From a virus (lineage: Duplodnaviria; Heunggongvirae; Uroviricota; Caudoviricetes), in the IMG/VR virus record IMGVR_UViG_2541047689_000010: a DNA stretch of 39,434 nt; one strand, written 5' to 3'. This document shows, piece by piece, positions 3,316 through 34,103 of the stretch. The notes beneath the pieces were generated by a model. The model searched no databases and was not told the origin of the DNA. It saw only the letters and a list, made by a program, of their open reading frames with translations. A program made the translations under genes and the position numbers. The stretch's first letter is position 1; each line of letters starts with the position of its first letter.

Positions 3316-6072
3316 TTAGCTACTTTCAAGCATTGCAAGACGTGATTCTATTTTTTCGATTCTTCTACGCAAATAAGCTGACTCAAGCCATAAACACTGG
3401 TCAGTACGGATACCCCACCTATTTCCAGCCTTGCAAACCAGAGTTCGCTCTTCTGTTTCGTATTCTTCTTCCATCTCAATTTCGACGCCATCCACAACTT
3501 TAGTGATCATCCTTACCGCCATCACTGGCGCGTATTTATCATCCCATTCATCGTAACAGAGAAGGCCAAATCTGGTTCCATCAATCCCATGCGCGAGGAA
3601 AGTGTCTCTCACTTGTTGTGCTATAACACCAAAATGCCAGCGGGCACCATCTCCCTTTTCCCTGACGGCATCAAGCCAGCGAAAAGCTACAATCCTGATA
3701 TCTCCCCATGCATCCAGAATTGCATCACCTTCATAACCACGAGACATATACAAGCTGAGCTCACTTGTACTAATCGGTTCACTTTTTTCTCTACCATCTG
3801 ATGTGTTTATCGAACCGTTCGCAGAATAAACCTGTGCCCATCTAAATGATGGTGCACCAAGAGATTTGCTGTTATCAATAATTGGTGAAAAATTACCTTT
3901 AATGGCAATATTTCCAGAGTCGCCGAATATATTAATAACTGCAGAGTCATCACCATGGTTTTTTACGCTTAAGTTTCTTGATGAAATATTTATATCTTTG
4001 TTATATCCACTAACATTAATCCATCTTTTACCATCAATGTGATACCCGTAAATATTTCCGTCTGATTGTTCGTCAGGTGACTCTCTAAGAACAATAGCAT
4101 CTGCTCCAGACGACCATTGTATTTTTGTATCTGTAGGCCTCCAGTTCTTTATAATGAACGAACCATCAGTAAACTCCGTTTTTATTTGTCTATTGTCTAC
4201 AAATGCGTCTCTTGGTTTAAACTCACTTGTGTTAACGCTGCTCTGAAGATCAGAAGCAAAAAATCTAAGATTTCCTGTATAACCCTGAGTCTCGGTCTGG
4301 TTATACGCAATCATAATTCCATTTTCAAACTCAGATGATGTTATTTTAACATCACGGCAATCACCAAAAATGCAATTTCCTTTATCAAATGTTGTTTGAG
4401 CTTTGAATTTATCAAACCTTAAATTACGAACAGGGAAACCATCAACCTCTAATGCAAAGGATGCAGGAAGGCCAAAGTATTCTGATGGCTTACCTGATGT
4501 ATGATCAAGAGTAGTGGCTACTGTATTCTCAAAAACAGTCCCGCTAAAATTATTACCAATTGACGGAAACCTGATTACACTTATTGTACCTTGTATTTCA
4601 GGAGAAATACCAGATAGTGTGATGTTAGCTCCATCAAATGATGCATCTGAATACGTATATACTGATTCACTGCCAGCAATTTTAAACTGTTTAACTGAAG
4701 TTATTCTCATCGACTTTTTATGTTTAAATGTCACTGAGCTTTCAGTATTACTTACAAGATCAATCTGAGGGCTATTCCTTATCGCGATCCCTGACTGGAC
4801 ATAAACGTTATTAAAGTGCGTTTTTTCAGGATTTCCCTTCATTGAAAGGCTCCCGTCATTTTCTGTCAGTAGTAGTCCTTTTACCCTCCAATAGCCGACA
4901 ATCTGTACGTTATCAATAACTGAATCACAGCTATCGTATACATGCAACCCTATATCCCAGTCATCACCCAATGAATAAGAATCAGGGTTATTGTATCCTT
5001 CAATACCATTTTTACTTACCATTATTCTCAGGTTGCGTAACTGTGATGCCCTGTTGATACTAACAGCTACGCTCATGGCTTTTGGTGTAGCAGGAGTAAC
5101 ACCTACAGAATCTTCATTTGTAAACTCAGTGAACTTACAAGATATCCCTTCAACAATTTTAACTGGTCTTTCATTAGAGATGTTAAAAAAATATTTGTTT
5201 TTTTCTCCATCACCAGTAAATACAAGATGGGTTCCTTTACTCCAACTTTTTAATAATCTTTCAGGCGCTGGTCTATATGTATCCCAATAATCAATGCCAT
5301 CACCAATTAAAGACACTCCAGGAGGCACATCTATGTTCTTAGAAATCATCCATTTACCTGCAGGTATTCTAACGACACTTGCACCAGAATTTATCGCATT
5401 AATTAACCATTCAGACGCATCAACTTCAAAATTTAATGCAGCATATCTTTGCTCAAACGGAACAAAATCAAGAGCGTTAACGTTATCCCGCATCTTATCC
5501 TGGAACGTTCGGTATACTGCTCCAGAACCATACTGAATAAACCAACCAAAACCACCAACAACTCCGGCGATTGCAGCATCAACATAATTGCGCATTGATC
5601 GATTATTTACAGCATCCTGCTCAAGTGATGGATCTGCAAGGTTAGAAATTTTGTTTTGCTTTGCATCGTAATATTTTGCAAGCAAAGATGGTTTCATCAA
5701 TGCACGTCTGAACCATCCAAAACATTGCTGGATCAGCATCGTCAGATAGTCAAAGGCATCTTCATGCACCTCGGGGAAAAATTTTCCCTGATTACGAAGA
5801 TCAGTCTCCTGCACCACATCAAGCACACGATCTATCGTAATTCGCCATCCAGCAGCAAGCGGCGACGGAAGAACAACAGAACCGCCACTATAAGTGCCCG
5901 CCCCTGTTACCGTATAACCGGTATCCAGAACCAATTCTGTTACGTTCCCGTTCAGGTCAGACACCTGAACAACCAGGTCGGATTTTTTGAAAATACGGAA
6001 GGTATACGGAAATGATGTCGTAGCTCCGTTACCTGTGTATTCGTTGTGGTCAACTTCGGTTGAGACCGTCAT
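3316..6072 (-). CDS. Tailspike / tail fibre protein with C-terminal intramolecular-chaperone (peptidase S74-like) domain
   Basis: 918 aa; long central Ser/Asn/Gly-rich region consistent with a beta-helical receptor-binding domain; C-terminal ...DGREKSEPISTSELSLYMS...WHFGVIAQQV... resembles self-cleaving chaperone domains of tailspikes/endosialidases. Confidence 0.8.
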   Translation of the reverse strand: MTVSTEVDHNEYTGNGATTSFPYTFRIFKKSDLVVQVSDLNGNVTELVLDTGYTVTGAGTYSGGSVVLPSPLAAGWRITIDRVLDVVQETDLRNQGKFFPEVHEDAFDYLTMLIQQCFGWFRRALMKPSLLAKYYDAKQNKISNLADPSLEQDAVNNRSMRNYVDAAIAGVVGGFGWFIQYGSGAVYRTFQDKMRDNVNALDFVPFEQRYAALNFEVDASEWLINAINSGASVVRIPAGKWMISKNIDVPPGVSLIGDGIDYWDTYRPAPERLLKSWSKGTHLVFTGDGEKNKYFFNISNERPVKIVEGISCKFTEFTNEDSVGVTPATPKAMSVAVSINRASQLRNLRIMVSKNGIEGYNNPDSYSLGDDWDIGLHVYDSCDSVIDNVQIVGYWRVKGLLLTENDGSLSMKGNPEKTHFNNVYVQSGIAIRNSPQIDLVSNTESSVTFKHKKSMRITSVKQFKIAGSESVYTYSDASFDGANITLSGISPEIQGTISVIRFPSIGNNFSGTVFENTVATTLDHTSGKPSEYFGLPASFALEVDGFPVRNLRFDKFKAQTTFDKGNCIFGDCRDVKITSSEFENGIMIAYNQTETQGYTGNLRFFASDLQSSVNTSEFKPRDAFVDNRQIKTEFTDGSFIIKNWRPTDTKIQWSSGADAIVLRESPDEQSDGNIYGYHIDGKRWINVSGYNKDINISSRNLSVKNHGDDSAVINIFGDSGNIAIKGNFSPIIDNSKSLGAPSFRWAQVYSANGSINTSDGREKSEPISTSELSLYMSRGYEGDAILDAWGDIRIVAFRWLDAVREKGDGARWHFGVIAQQVRDTFLAHGIDGTRFGLLCYDEWDDKYAPVMAVRMITKVVDGVEIEMEEEYETEERTLVCKAGNRWGIRTDQCLWLESAYLRRRIEKIESRLAMLESS

Positions 6073-6228: not shown

Positions 6229-6248
6229 TACTGTATAAATATACAGTT
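6229..6248. promoter_or_regulatory. LexA (SOS) box
   Basis: TACTGTATAAATATACAGTT matches the E. coli LexA consensus CTGT-N8-ACAG with AT-rich spacer; ends 20 nt upstream of the ATG at 6268. Confidence 0.65.
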
Positions 6249-6267: not shown

Positions 6268-6525
6268 ATGCAGCAGTATCACTATCCACTGGAAGACGGA
6301 TTTACCGAAAGGATTCACACGCCGGGAGGCGTCAGGTCACTGGTGGAGGGATCGCACTTGATGAAATTACTCCGGGATCTCGATAAGGATGGATTTAATG
6401 TCGATGGCCCACTTGCCGAACTGACTGCACTGATTAACTACGTCACCAGCTCACAGATGTCTATGCAGGATCTGCAAACACATCTCGACTATTGTGCCGA
6501 ACAATTACGAAAGCAAACCAGATAA
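6268..6525 (+). CDS. Small SOS-controlled protein homologous to the C-terminal domain of the adjacent Bro-N antirepressor (putative antirepressor)
   Basis: ATG with GGAG upstream, in frame with track ORF 6145-6525; about 85 aa; alignable with residues about 160-230 of the 6839-7531 product. Confidence 0.55.
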   Translation: MQQYHYPLEDGFTERIHTPGGVRSLVEGSHLMKLLRDLDKDGFNVDGPLAELTALINYVTSSQMSMQDLQTHLDYCAEQLRKQTR

Positions 6526-6572: not shown

Positions 6573-6838
6573 TTTACATCGCACTCCTCTTGTGCCATAG
6601 TAATCGGGCACTGGCAAAATCCAGTGCCGGGATTGGTCTCCCGGATTACTACAGAGGCACATATGCCGCATAAGCGGTTTTTTTATGTGTAAAGCGCACC
6701 TATTCTATGGTGGGCTGTGTGGGGGCACCGAAAGGTGCGCCGGGTTCCTTTGTAGCCGGTAAGACCAACTCTGCACAGTTCACCACCATCTGATTGGTCT
6801 CAGCGGTGGTGATTAACCTAACTACAAAGGTGATCGCC

Positions 6839-7531: not shown

Positions 7532-7596
7532 CGGGCGGCGGCACATGGATGTGCCTTTAAAATAATCATTGGCGATGTGATGTAGATTCGCGTAAT

Positions 7597-7613
7597 ATTA
7601 CCTTAAAGGTAAA
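7597..7613. promoter_or_regulatory. Operator-like dyad ATTACC-N5-GGTAAA overlapping a candidate -10 element
   Basis: Read directly; 25 nt upstream of the 7639 ATG. Confidence 0.5.
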
Positions 7614-7638
7614 CCATGTGTTTACATGAGGAGGAGAT

Positions 7639-7848
7639 ATGGGATTTTGGTTCGCTCGTACAAAAACGAGGGATAATGCACCCAGCCCTCAGGCAAAAAA
7701 TGCAGAAGTTCCGGCGTCAGCGCAGGTTAACAAGCGTGGTGGAGTATATATCTCATCACAGCAAATTTCTGAGCTTCCTGAGGTTAAGGAGATGCGTCGT
7801 CTCGCTGCTGCAATTGTTAAACAGGATCTTGCCACTGTAAGGAAGTAG
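7639..7848 (+). CDS. Small hydrophilic protein (69 aa), unknown function, translationally coupled to the downstream membrane protein
   Basis: SD GAGGAGGAG before ATG; stop TAG overlaps the GTG start of the next gene (TAGTG). Confidence 0.5.
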   Translation: MGFWFARTKTRDNAPSPQAKNAEVPASAQVNKRGGVYISSQQISELPEVKEMRRLAAAIVKQDLATVRK

Positions 7849-8714
7849 TGTTGCTAGCTCTTCTAATTATCCCAATCCTGGTTAGCGGTTATATTATGAT
7901 AACCGCTAACCAGTATCATTATTTCCGTTTATACCGACACGAAGGCCAGCTTCTTTATATGAAAGTAGCGGCACTAGGTACATATTGCCTTGTTGCATCA
8001 GTAATAATTGCAGCCGCTATAAAATATAAATGGCCTGATTTTCACCTAGTTCACGATATGGTGGAAACTTTTAATGTAACATCAAAACCAGAAACAGATA
8101 GAATTTACATGTGGCTGCTTCTTCTCTCAGCCACATCCATTTGCTTCTCTTTGTGTTATGTGTCTGTTGTGTGGGTGAAAGATTTTCTTCTTGGTTGTTT
8201 TTATAAACGTGATATTTACGAGCAAAAAACAGAGGCAATGAAGGCCAGAGTACTGCGAAAAACTTACTCGCAAGGTTCTTTAGACTTACTATTGCTTGAT
8301 GCTATTGAATCGGATCCTAAACGACCAATGCTGATTACTTTATCATCAAACAAAGTGTATGTTGGAATAATAAATGGTTCTGGTGAACCAACGGAAAATC
8401 AGGGTCCGCATCAGCACATATCTTTTGTTCCTTTAATGTCAGGATACAGGAACAAAGAAAACTTATCTGTCACATTCACTAATGCTTATCCAGGAGAAAT
8501 ACAGGTCAAGCGGACTGCAGCAATAAGAGGAATTAGCAGAAAGAAAGTGCCAGGACTTGAGATCATGGTGTCTATTGACGAAATAAGTTATATATCATGG
8601 TTTGATTTTGAAGTATATAAAGCAACAAATAACAAAGTAGAATCCAGGGGGCACGTTATTCGTGTTACCAAAAATGGAAGAAATATATATCAAAGAAATA
8701 GCAAAAAAGAATAG
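7848..8714 (+). CDS. Membrane protein with three N-terminal TM helices and a roughly 170-aa C-terminal soluble domain; unknown function (candidate exclusion/abortive-infection effector)
   Basis: GTG start with AAGGAAG SD; hydrophobic segments LLALLIIPILVSGYIMI, VAALGTYCLVASVIIAAAI, YMWLLLLSATSICFSLCYVSVVW; gene is visibly AT-rich compared with flanking phage genes; intrinsic terminator directly after the stop. Confidence 0.55.
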   Translation: MLLALLIIPILVSGYIMITANQYHYFRLYRHEGQLLYMKVAALGTYCLVASVIIAAAIKYKWPDFHLVHDMVETFNVTSKPETDRIYMWLLLLSATSICFSLCYVSVVWVKDFLLGCFYKRDIYEQKTEAMKARVLRKTYSQGSLDLLLLDAIESDPKRPMLITLSSNKVYVGIINGSGEPTENQGPHQHISFVPLMSGYRNKENLSVTFTNAYPGEIQVKRTAAIRGISRKKVPGLEIMVSIDEISYISWFDFEVYKATNNKVESRGHVIRVTKNGRNIYQRNSKKE

Positions 8715-8736
8715 CCCGCGCTGCGGGCTTTTTTGT
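8714..8736 (+). terminator. Intrinsic terminator
   Basis: GCCCGC-gct-GCGGGC followed by TTTTTTGT, starting at the stop codon of 7848-8714. Confidence 0.6.
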
Positions 8737-8812: not shown

Positions 8813-9263
8813 CTACTTGCGAAATCTTTCTTTACCCTTCCAGCCAGTAGATGTTAGTTCAGGATGAATGGTTCCCAATATAAAGCCAACCATAGCGGAG
8901 CGAGGATCTTCTATTTTATCCGTTAATTCTTCGGCATAACTCACAGGCAACCAAGCAACAAGATCACCAATCCTCAGCTTTGGTCCTTTGCTGTAAGATG
9001 AATCGGCAATAACAAAAAATCCACCATCAGCTGAGCACACCTTCAGCATTGCCCTTTGTCTTCCAGAATCTAGCAAAACTGGCTGTTCCCCACTTGGACC
9101 AGGTATGATGATGGCTGGCATTGGTTTATTGGCTGAAAGGCTTGTGTCAAGATACTTACACGCATACTCAAAAGCTGAAAAGTTATCCTTAAAGATAAGA
9201 GGTTGAATTTTATTGCTAACCTCCTTACCACCGATTAATCTGTTGATCATCTTCTTGAACATA
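8813..9263 (-). CDS. Hypothetical protein (about 149 aa), unknown function
   Basis: Start taken at ATG (MFKKMINR...) with SD AGGTGA 5 nt upstream; lies in the AT-rich accessory block. Confidence 0.5.
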
Positions 9264-9274
9264 AAGGTCACCTA

Positions 9275-9715
9275 ATGATTAAGCCGATGCACGCTATTAC
9301 AGCTACCGTTTTGTTTATCCTACCAATTTTTTCGTTTGCAAACGACATATGTTTTAAGAATTTAATAAATGAGGATATGTGTGCACATGCAAACAAAATT
9401 GCATCAGAAGCAGGAAAGTCACTTCCCATAAAATTGAATGATAATATGTCTATTGTTTCAATAAATGCAATACTAAACAAACTTTTAGTTGTAGCGCATC
9501 TTAATTACAACAACAGCTATTTATCAAAAGTTTATAACGGTGATGTAACCTTAGAAAATAAATTAAAGAGTGTAATGCGAAATTATTCAAAATCGAGCAT
9601 TTGCTCCAACAGGCAAATGAAAGCATTTATTCACCTTGGCGGAGAGATTGAATATAGGTATGTATTTAGTGATGGCAATATATTTGATACATACGCCATC
9701 ACTAATTGTGAATAG
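9275..9715 (+). CDS. Secreted/periplasmic small protein with cleavable signal peptide and four Cys; unknown function
   Basis: N-terminus MIKPMHAITATVLFILPIFSFA then NDICF...; AT-rich; stop abuts the stop of the convergent tail gene. Confidence 0.5.
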   Translation: MIKPMHAITATVLFILPIFSFANDICFKNLINEDMCAHANKIASEAGKSLPIKLNDNMSIVSINAILNKLLVVAHLNYNNSYLSKVYNGDVTLENKLKSVMRNYSKSSICSNRQMKAFIHLGGEIEYRYVFSDGNIFDTYAITNCE

Positions 9716-25495: not shown

Positions 25496-25572
25496 GTGGC
25501 ATTAGCTCAGTTGGACAGAGCAACCGCCTTCTAAGCGGTTGGTCGCAGGTTCGAATCCTGCATGCCACACCA
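25496..25572 (+). tRNA. tRNA-Arg (anticodon UCU, reads AGA)
   Basis: Manual cloverleaf: acceptor GTGGCAT/ATGCCAC, D-arm GCTC...GAGC, anticodon stem ACCGC/GCGGT with loop CTTCTAA, T-arm GCAGG-TTCGAAT-CCTGC, discriminator A and encoded CCA. Confidence 0.8.
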
Positions 25573-25770
25573 GAATCACGCCTAAGGACCGTGATGCCAG
25601 AAGTTCCAGGGGCTTGGCGGTGATGGTTTCCCTTGAAGGACTATCACCGCCCTTTTTACAGCAGGACGCCATTGCGATGACTTCATGCTGTAAACCCGTA
25701 CAGCCACGGAAGGCATAACTCATTGCTTCCAGTTCGCCCGGTTCGCCGGGCATTTTTTTAAGGTGAGATT

Positions 25771-33518: not shown

Positions 33519-34103
33519 ATGAAAAGTATCCAGGACGTCCGCAGGCAAAATCTCAACGACTTGATCGACCGTGAATTCAATGGTGTTCAGACGCGGATGG
33601 CAGAAAAACTTGGAACTCAGGCAAATCTGGTAAACCGCTGGGCTCTTGGCAAGAAGGTTATCGGCGACCAGGTTGCGCGAAAAATTGAAGCTGCCGCCAA
33701 TAAACCCCGTAACTGGCTTGATATCGATCGCTCGCTTTCTCAGGAAGGTTTTCAGCCTGTCGGCCCAAGCGACATTGGTCAGCTGGCGGCTCACAACCTG
33801 GAACGCTGGATGAGCGAAAGCCGCGACCTTTCAACGCAGGGAAAACTTCACCGCGCATCCGGCGTCGCCCAGGTGACAATCAGTCGCCTGTTAAACAATG
33901 AGGTCAGCGTTTCCATTTCCACCCTGGAGAATGTTGCATCCGCATTCGGGCGTCACGGATATGAACTACTGATTCACCCGCACGACCCTGCGACTATCAA
34001 CTATGACCGCTCGCGCTACGCATTGTTACCCGAAACCGAGAAAGCAAAGATCGAAAGTTACATTGAATTTGTCATCAACCAGAACGAAAAAAGCAAACAA
34101 TAA
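33519..34103 (+). CDS. Prophage repressor (CI-like) with two helix-turn-helix domains and no LexA-type (S24) autocleavage domain
   Basis: 194 aa; two HTH-like segments (...QTRMAEKLGTQANLVNRWALGKK... and ...LHRASGVAQVTISRLLNNEV...); no Ala-Gly/Ser-Lys peptidase motifs seen; divergent from cro-like gene; followed by a strong terminator. Confidence 0.65.
   Translation: MKSIQDVRRQNLNDLIDREFNGVQTRMAEKLGTQANLVNRWALGKKVIGDQVARKIEAAANKPRNWLDIDRSLSQEGFQPVGPSDIGQLAAHNLERWMSESRDLSTQGKLHRASGVAQVTISRLLNNEVSVSISTLENVASAFGRHGYELLIHPHDPATINYDRSRYALLPETEKAKIESYIEFVINQNEKSKQ

Follow-up and report, generated by a model that had tools for sequence, protein, structure and literature searches.

Lambda RexAB consists of a soluble and a polytopic membrane component and is thought to act via membrane depolarisation, and in the cyclic-oligonucleotide-based anti-phage signalling system (CBASS) the protein Cap15 joins N-terminal transmembrane (TM) helices to a cytoplasmic beta-barrel that binds the signal and drives membrane disruption. 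MscS has a cytoplasmic beta domain classed as Sm-like, many abortive-infection systems are toxin-antitoxin modules, and T4 Imm is an exclusion protein of early expression. P22 SieA is a 3-TM inner-membrane protein that acts against incoming phage and carries the motif FxRYPxEAxxFNK (PMC10883804). In one report, randomly picked P4-hotspot loci of unknown function mostly gave phage resistance, and many unknown proteins of P2 hotspots were predicted to be antiviral (PMC13586616). Here we describe a two-gene cassette in the virus record IMGVR_UViG_2541047689_000010 of IMG/VR, a DNA stretch of 39,434 nucleotides (nt; hereafter the window, meaning the whole stretch) that represents an E. coli prophage of the epsilon15/phiV10-like podovirus type and recurs with 100% identity in NZ_OZ040490.1, where it adjoins yfgI/pdeF. 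The cassette encodes a protein of 69 amino acids (aa) and one of 288 aa (the small and the large protein; Table 1). We read the pair, tentatively and with a probability of roughly 0.4, as a two-component inner-membrane module for phage exclusion or abortive infection that moves as a conflict cassette. The cassette represents a widespread, undescribed family of unusual architecture whose contexts make it a good candidate for a role in phage conflict.

An original prediction, made from the letters of the window alone, had proposed two translationally coupled genes. Both open reading frames (ORFs) were confirmed: the TAG stop of the small gene and the GTG start of the large gene overlap by 1 nt, and each ORF has a Shine-Dalgarno sequence. 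TTG 7851, a codon used in close relatives, is a possible true start of the large gene; the RefSeq gene model begins at the internal ATG 7896 and loses TM1 as a result. Since the N-terminal motif PILVSGY is invariant across large-protein homologues, we favour the longer form (GTG or TTG start). Ratios of nonsynonymous to synonymous divergence (dN/dS) were 0.02–0.22 for the small gene and 0.05–0.09 for the large gene, indicating purifying selection on both. The AT-richness ascribed to the second gene was also borne out, with a GC content of 0.36–0.39 over positions 7800–8600 compared with about 0.50 in the structural genes. An overlapping 74-aa ORF (7616–7840) was rejected, as conservation in distant homologues and purifying selection were seen in the 69-aa frame alone.

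The small protein is hydrophilic, has no TM segment and belongs to phrog_5739 (E value 7e-52). In its conserved core, a helix (AAAIV) comes after a beta-hairpin-like segment (RGGVYISSQQISELPEVKEM); across the family, the pattern V-x-V-G-x-G-x-V-x-V/I-D/P/S leads via an acidic residue into a helix that closes with A-x-x-I-V. Wherever upstream sequence was available, an ORF of 57–90 aa lies directly 5' of the large gene, and no large gene was seen without its small gene in these contexts. A hidden Markov model (HMM) of the core detects the upstream ORF at 61 of the 71 large-gene matches, and what it misses are genes placed at the start of a contig, fragments of Arsenophonus pseudogenes and a single divergent case. 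The pair is conserved over roughly 70 loci, from Enterobacterales to Acidobacteria, with its order kept in nearly all of them and intergenic gaps of −31 to +68 nt. The mirror-tree distances of 40 distinct pairs correlate at r = 0.93, a value reached by 0 of 2000 Mantel permutations. These patterns indicate that the small soluble protein and the large membrane protein are one functional unit whose members co-diversify. As a separate observation, the large gene is fragmented by stop codons in three loci from Arsenophonus insect-endosymbiont genomes, with the small gene upstream still detectable in at least two of them.

Our AlphaFold2 (AF2) model of the large protein, built from an 87-sequence alignment (predicted local distance difference test score, pLDDT, 88.7; predicted template modelling score, pTM, 0.79), agrees with the predicted three N-terminal TM helices and soluble C-terminal domain, and adds short interfacial linker helices at residues 22–30 and 67–75. 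The C-terminal domain had been said to carry no recognisable motif, a statement that has to be revised at the level of structure, where fold prediction gives an Sm/LSm fold. As the Sm fold demands, an N-terminal helix is followed by five strongly bent antiparallel strands (145–251), after which the AF2 model places a C-terminal helix; residues 215–238, between strands 4 and 5, form a variable, low-confidence insert of 24 residues. Charge counts over the 87 homologues are +1.4 in loop 1, −1.2 in loop 2 and +1.95 after TM3, a positive-inside pattern that puts the N terminus outside and the Sm domain in the cytoplasm. The large protein is thus predicted to be an inner-membrane protein with three TM helices, N-out/C-in, whose conserved Sm-like beta-barrel faces the cytoplasm. 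Invariant residues fall into two patches, one spanning TM1, loop 1 and TM2 (P9, L11, G14, R30, G33, Q34, L36, Y37 and G44) and one in the Sm domain (K169, Y171, G173, P181, E183, P195, S198, G199, Y200, R201, Y214 and F252), the latter domain having the conserved motifs KVYVG, EPxE and SGYR.

The large gene belongs to phrog_3630 (E value 1e-113). A profile search of 1.84 billion representatives recovered 2338 family representatives (clusters at 50% identity) at E values up to 1e-3, and 901 at E values up to 1e-10; nearly all 2338 are 240–340 aa long, and the names of cluster members are all 'hypothetical protein'. A second search added 513 further members from Gamma-, Beta- and Alphaproteobacteria and cyanobacteria, named 'hypothetical' alone and without a Pfam domain. 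That neither protein could be placed in a described family was upheld by negative profile searches of Pfam, NCBIfam, PADLOC and PDB: Pfam and NCBIfam scans of both proteins gave no match, the two PHROG families are labelled 'unknown function', and no Pfam or PDB relatives were found for the 87 large-protein homologues or for 15 homologues of the small protein. PDB profile matches to NDH subunit 2 and to hairpins of the Pizza beta-propeller were dismissed as chance. We found no description of the large-protein family in literature on Sm-like transmembrane proteins with anti-phage roles, the PHROG identifier, P2 hotspots or superinfection exclusion. The P4-hotspot systems Bandua, Aernus, Toga, Reve, Crouga and Hailong differ from the pair in domain content (PMC13586616). 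Homology to virion or lipopolysaccharide-modification proteins, which the original prediction had named as grounds for abandoning its proposal, was not found.

At the level of the fold, the large protein can be set beside two known groups. Neither the query nor the 87 homologues matched an LSM or Hfq (Sm1/Sm2) profile, and no PDB sequence match to an Sm/LSm/Hfq protein was obtained; unlike those proteins, the large protein has a fused 3-TM anchor, the 24-residue insert and motifs of its own, and its ring and RNA binding are putative. Three TM helices, an N-out/C-in arrangement and a following cytoplasmic beta domain are shared with MscS-type channels, with no homology detected to the MS_channel family. 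Beyond the fold, the large protein is a member of neither the Hfq/LSm nor the MscS family.

The closest functional parallels each match the pair in part. Like lambda RexAB, it is a prophage-borne combination of a soluble and a membrane protein, but here the membrane protein is the larger partner and has a putative sensor domain, and where lysogens transcribe rexAB together with cI, the operon of the pair carries a repressor operator. Like Cap15, the large protein fuses N-terminal TM helices to a small cytoplasmic beta-barrel; unlike in Cap15, the barrel is of Sm type and the partner is a protein of about 60–90 aa, and in roughly 20 contexts examined no cyclase or other signal-generating gene stood next to the pair. 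The type II toxin-antitoxin arrangement (adjacent, co-directional and coupled genes, with the gene in the antidote position first) is present, but the DNA-binding domain and own operator of a type II antitoxin are not, as 15 small-protein homologues gave no match and no intrinsic palindrome was found. With P22 SieA the large protein shares its prophage origin, three predicted TM helices and a place between ejection-protein genes and immI/tailspike. SieA differs in having 164 aa, no Sm domain, no obligatory small partner and its own promoter, where the pair has a slot promoter with a repressor operator. The SieA motif FxRYPxEAxxFNK is missing from the 288-aa protein, which has only YPGE (213–217) in common with it, in different flanks. 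Homology to SieA was accordingly rejected (hhalign probability 0.7% for the 87-sequence profile; BLASTP E value 3.1).

The cassette had been credited with its own dyad-bearing promoter and terminator. These elements are present, but they are shared with prophages that carry other cargo. The promoter is a weak sigma-70-like match (8 of 12 consensus positions) that falls below the call of a promoter scanner, and the stretch is 97–99% identical in many E. coli prophages with different cargo. Among complete E. coli genomes, 128 have the flanks but only 28 the cassette. In HEMP4, 118UI, IHE3034 and PCN033, identity spans ant, the promoter and the dyad and ends at 7612/7613; with other-cargo prophages it picks up again from about 8704 where the terminator (a 7-bp GC-rich hairpin plus a T-run) is common to both. 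This comparison assigns promoter, dyad and terminator to a slot of the phage backbone and not to the cassette. The proposed moron position between tailspike and tail genes holds as far as the moron slot is concerned, but the neighbours are tailspike/immI on one side and internal-virion/ejection genes on the other.

Five sister E. coli prophages carry unrelated contents in this slot. Alternative cargos include genes for 55 + 147 aa, for 210 aa, for 193 aa, and a 108-aa gene with a YafO-family toxin; none had a PADLOC match, and YafO and DUF2335 alone were recognised in Pfam. The slot serves as a small reservoir for accessory genes still to be characterised. In Ecol_542 (locus L070, 3050–3997), an intact orphan 69-aa gene with the change R33C is retained and the large gene is replaced, the sequence diverging right after the small-gene stop into a 71-aa ORF and a DUF2335 membrane protein. 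This orphan is either a recombination scar at the gene junction or a sign that the small protein can be retained without its partner. Another locus (L041) matches the window exactly over the small gene and the first part of the large gene, and has a dS of 0.45 over the rest of the large gene. Together, these breakpoints point to recombination that repeatedly cuts at or near the gene junction.

Homologous pairs occur in varied elements. The same slot holds the pair in epsilon15-like prophages of Providencia and Symbiopectobacterium, and the pair adjoins int/attP in Cronobacter phiES15 and a Citrobacter lambdoid prophage. It also occupies the P2-type hotspot in the gap between gpA and portal in Klebsiella, Salmonella SEN4/5, Yersinia and Enterobacter phages, where the Klebsiella copy adjoins bSEFIR (E value 7e-103) and the Enterobacter copy adjoins IetA (4e-131) and IetS (9e-271). 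An Enterobacter lambdoid prophage has the pair in an antisense moron island with a SIR2_2 gene, a Shewanella Mu-like prophage carries it, and in a Novosphingobium island it is found with a transposase, Mrr and ParE. A further 33 viral loci with the pair are present in IMG/VR. This distribution marks the pair as a mobile accessory or defence cassette.

The dyad at the slot promoter is one of many in the window, which contains 14 TTACC-N5-GGTAA sites at no more than one mismatch (10 of them perfect) against 0.68 expected. Four of these (33401, 33449, 34161 and 34223) flank the gene for a 194-aa HTH_3 repressor (33519–34103): two, with a degenerate third, lie between this gene and a cro-like gene, and two enclose a TTGACA-17-AATTAT promoter situated shortly 3' of the repressor gene. 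Other sites precede two ant-type genes, the late region and tRNA-Arg, and most directly adjoin an A/T-rich, −10-like hexamer. The slot in Symbiopectobacterium has the same dyad motif and that in Providencia the variant TTAACC-N5-GGTTAA. Repetition across the prophage argues for a protein-binding site. A role as an RNA hairpin was rejected, as 7-bp arms around a single base are unable to fold and the folding of the leader is unremarkable (z = −1.3). We infer that the binder is the master repressor of the prophage, and the sites suggest that one repressor directly governs many scattered promoters, as C1 does in P1. Since the slot dyad and the operators on either side of the repressor gene share one motif, the cassette operon is probably under repressor control and not constitutive in the lysogen: the cargo promoter would be silenced in a stable lysogen, like ant, and active when the repressor is absent or inactivated. 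The repressor lacks an S24 peptidase domain and a LexA box lies 5' of the small Ant-C-terminal-like gene, so induction probably proceeds via an SOS-controlled antirepressor and not by self-cleavage. No operator or palindrome intrinsic to the module was found upstream of 18 diverse copies, and regulation presumably differs in the P2-like, lambdoid and att-adjacent copies.

A hairpin inside the 5' part of the large gene may further limit expression of its product. The stem has a stability of about −25 kcal/mol, with the internal ATG 7896 in its loop, and most Enterobacterales homologues retain it, as does a P2-borne copy whose protein identity is only 39%. Where the 5' arm has changed synonymously, the 3' arm shows amino-acid changes to match; over 20 sequences, 77% of cells are paired, both partners have changed in seven pairs and the covariation score is reached by 0 of 500 shuffles, with slid controls of the alignment 24–55% paired, values to be read in light of sequence relatedness and coding constraint. 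The hairpin is a candidate attenuator of large-protein expression. The Enterobacterales clade combines a weak large-gene start (GTG or TTG), coupling to the small gene and this conserved hairpin, a combination that points to deliberate limiting of large-protein synthesis.

How might an inner-membrane exclusion or abortive-infection module of this kind work? The cytoplasmic Sm-like domains could form a ring, as in other Sm proteins, whose pocket (K169, Y171, S198-G199-Y200-R201 and Y214) would bind a nucleic acid or nucleotide cue arising in infection. The small protein might keep the complex inactive or serve as the sensor, and, in the manner of toxin-antitoxin operons, the module would make little of the large protein compared with the small one. 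Once triggered, a bundle of 3xN helices could permeabilise or depolarise the membrane (abortive infection) or obstruct the DNA-entry conduit. In this prophage, the module would probably be active in the absence of repression or after its release (soon after infection or at induction) and not constitutively in the lysogen. A fuller version of this scheme is possible but rather doubtful: here the pair would be a new widespread class of anti-phage system in which a membrane-anchored Sm ring senses an early phage nucleic acid or nucleotide signal, the small partner exerts control, the outcome is entry closure or collapse of the membrane potential, and the epsilon15-like copies are wired to the repressor and deployed when immunity is absent or broken.

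Purifying selection, conservation of the pair, defence-type contexts and a swappable slot that elsewhere holds a YafO pair support a conflict module, and the non-ATG start, the overlap, the covarying 5' hairpin and the orphan small gene of Ecol_542 support toxin-like control of expression. Several observations weigh in the other direction. The defence role is drawn from context, and the ring, ligand binding, partner contact and pore are hypothetical; TM3, the pore-lining helix of MscS, shows poor conservation in the large-protein family. Neither protein matched PADLOC-DB 2.0 at E values up to 1, and 87 diverse homologues gave a single borderline chance match. Neither an antitoxin domain nor a DNA-binding domain can be recognised in the small protein (Pfam/PDB, 15 homologues), and several family members lie among ordinary chromosomal genes. 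The operator at the slot promoter also predicts repression in the lysogen, a poor fit to a constitutive prophage defence gene. The lysogen-protective role first proposed for the cassette is therefore only partly sustained: defence and moron positions, twice beside bSEFIR or IetAS, speak for it, and the operator speaks against protection in the lysogen itself.

Several other functions would account for part of these data. The position of the pair is that of sieA in P22, between ejection-protein genes and immI/tailspike, and the pair could be a superinfection-exclusion system of the SieA or Imm type that blocks the ejection-protein conduit or DNA translocation without killing, the small protein being an assembly or stability partner. 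P22 SieA likewise has three TM helices in the inner membrane (PMC10883804), and early, repressor-controlled expression would suit exclusion during establishment or lytic growth. We nevertheless think this unlikely, given the lack of SieA homology described above, a conserved cytoplasmic ligand-type pocket and obligatory partner that are foreign to known Sie proteins, and a family spread over podo-, myo-, lambdoid and Mu-like prophages, non-phage loci and several phyla, which is unexpected for a blocker adapted to particular ejection proteins. An accessory role in the phage's own early or lytic programme, for example as a membrane channel or a tethered RNA- or DNA-binding ring that tunes host physiology, is improbable to a similar degree. 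The slot promoter has the same operator as the early and ant promoters, predicting co-expression with early functions, and the Sm fold is typically RNA-binding; but the unrelated cargo of sister prophages implies a dispensable function, and the pair also occurs in phages with wholly different life-cycle machinery and in non-prophage loci.

A selfish addiction cassette of toxin-antitoxin type, with a membrane toxin and a small antidote that stabilise the carrier element, would explain the gene order, the coupling, the weak start codon of the presumed toxin and the 5' hairpin in its gene. Scattered two-gene insertions in chromosomes, the YafO toxin-antitoxin pair as an alternative cargo of the slot and, as an indirect hint, the orphan small gene tolerated in Ecol_542 would also fit. 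We give this idea less weight still, as the small protein lacks a DNA-binding fold of the antitoxin type and the module lacks an operator of its own, though addiction and defence are not mutually exclusive. In epsilon15-like phages, genes for O-antigen conversion lie close to the tailspike, and position alone would allow a serotype-conversion or envelope-modification gene that alters the receptor, as do the gtr genes of epsilon15 or P22. Such a role is very improbable: neither Pfam nor NCBIfam gave a match to a glycosyltransferase (Gtr included), flippase, polymerase (Wzy) or acyltransferase family, the sole folded soluble domain is cytoplasmic and Sm-like, and members of the family are also found in phages of the P2, Mu and lambda types.

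Should the pair indeed serve in defence or exclusion, current defence catalogues would lack a family of over 2000 sequence clusters, and a module of about 1.1 kb would bring to bacterial immunity a new effector architecture of three TM helices, an Sm-like ring domain and an obligatory mini-partner. The slot of epsilon15-like E. coli prophages, with its fixed promoter, repressor operator and terminator and its swappable contents, could be mined for further systems, and it raises the question of why accessory genes are placed under direct control of the immunity repressor.

Table 1 Features of the cassette and its surroundings, with positions counted from the first nucleotide of the window.
Feature	Position	Strand	Description
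Small gene	7639–7848	plus	ATG start, 69 aa, GGAGG 4 nt upstream
Large gene	7848–8714	plus	GTG start, 288 aa
Membrane region of large protein	7848–8198 (aa 1–117)	plus	Membrane-spanning helices 2–20, 33–61, 81–117 (AF2)
Sm/LSm/Hfq-fold domain of large protein	8280–8648 (aa 145–267)	plus	
5' hairpin in large gene	7878–7913	plus	Perfect 15-bp stem, 6-nt loop, codons 11–22
Slot promoter	7569–7598	plus	−35 TTGGCG (7569–7574), 18-nt spacer, −10 TAATAT (7593–7598)
Operator dyad TTACCTTAAAGGTAA	7598–7612		Abuts −10 hexamer of slot promoter
TTACC-N5-GGTAA sites	2948, 6177, 6557, 7598, 25159, 28286, 28304, 31080, 31142, 33064, 33401, 33449, 34161, 34223		15 bp each
Bidirectional intrinsic terminator AGCCCGCGCTGCGGGCT + TTTTTT	8713–8735	both	Overlaps large-gene stop
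Tailspike	3316–6072	minus	
LexA box CTGTATAAATATACAG	6231–6246		Perfect; just 5' of small Ant-C-terminal-like gene
Small Ant-C-terminal-like gene	6268–6525	plus	
isrK small RNA	6608–6684	plus	Rfam, 74.7 bits, above gathering score
C4 antisense RNA	6703–6790	plus	Rfam, 78.6 bits, above gathering score
BRO-N antirepressor (ant)	ends 7531	plus	Directly 3' of isrK/C4
Hairpin GGCACATGGATGTGCC	7540–7555	plus	Just 3' of ant stop (7531)
T7-gp14-like internal virion proteins	from 9716	minus	

Upstream of the cassette, a plus-strand immI-like region of P1 type (ant) lies between the tailspike and the internal virion protein genes. Its succession of isrK, C4 and BRO-N amounts to a P1/P7-type immI layout within an epsilon15-like podovirus prophage. 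The hairpin GGCACATGGATGTGCC is backbone sequence, common to phage HEMP4, and probably closes the preceding immI/ant unit.

Between the cassette and the internal-virion protein gene lie two AT-rich genes of unknown function (phrog_9944/phrog_8772; GC about 0.32–0.39) at 8813–9271 (minus strand) and 9275–9715 (plus strand), which look like further morons; the product of the second opens with a signal-peptide-like sequence (MIKPMHAITATVLFILPIFSFA). Farther away, a tRNA-Arg(tct) gene (25496–25572) lies on the opposite strand inside the structural-gene block, with a TTGACA promoter-like element upstream of it that bears one of the TTACC-N5-GGTAA operators, and a LexA-like box (CTGTAAACCCGTACAG) is found at 25688.

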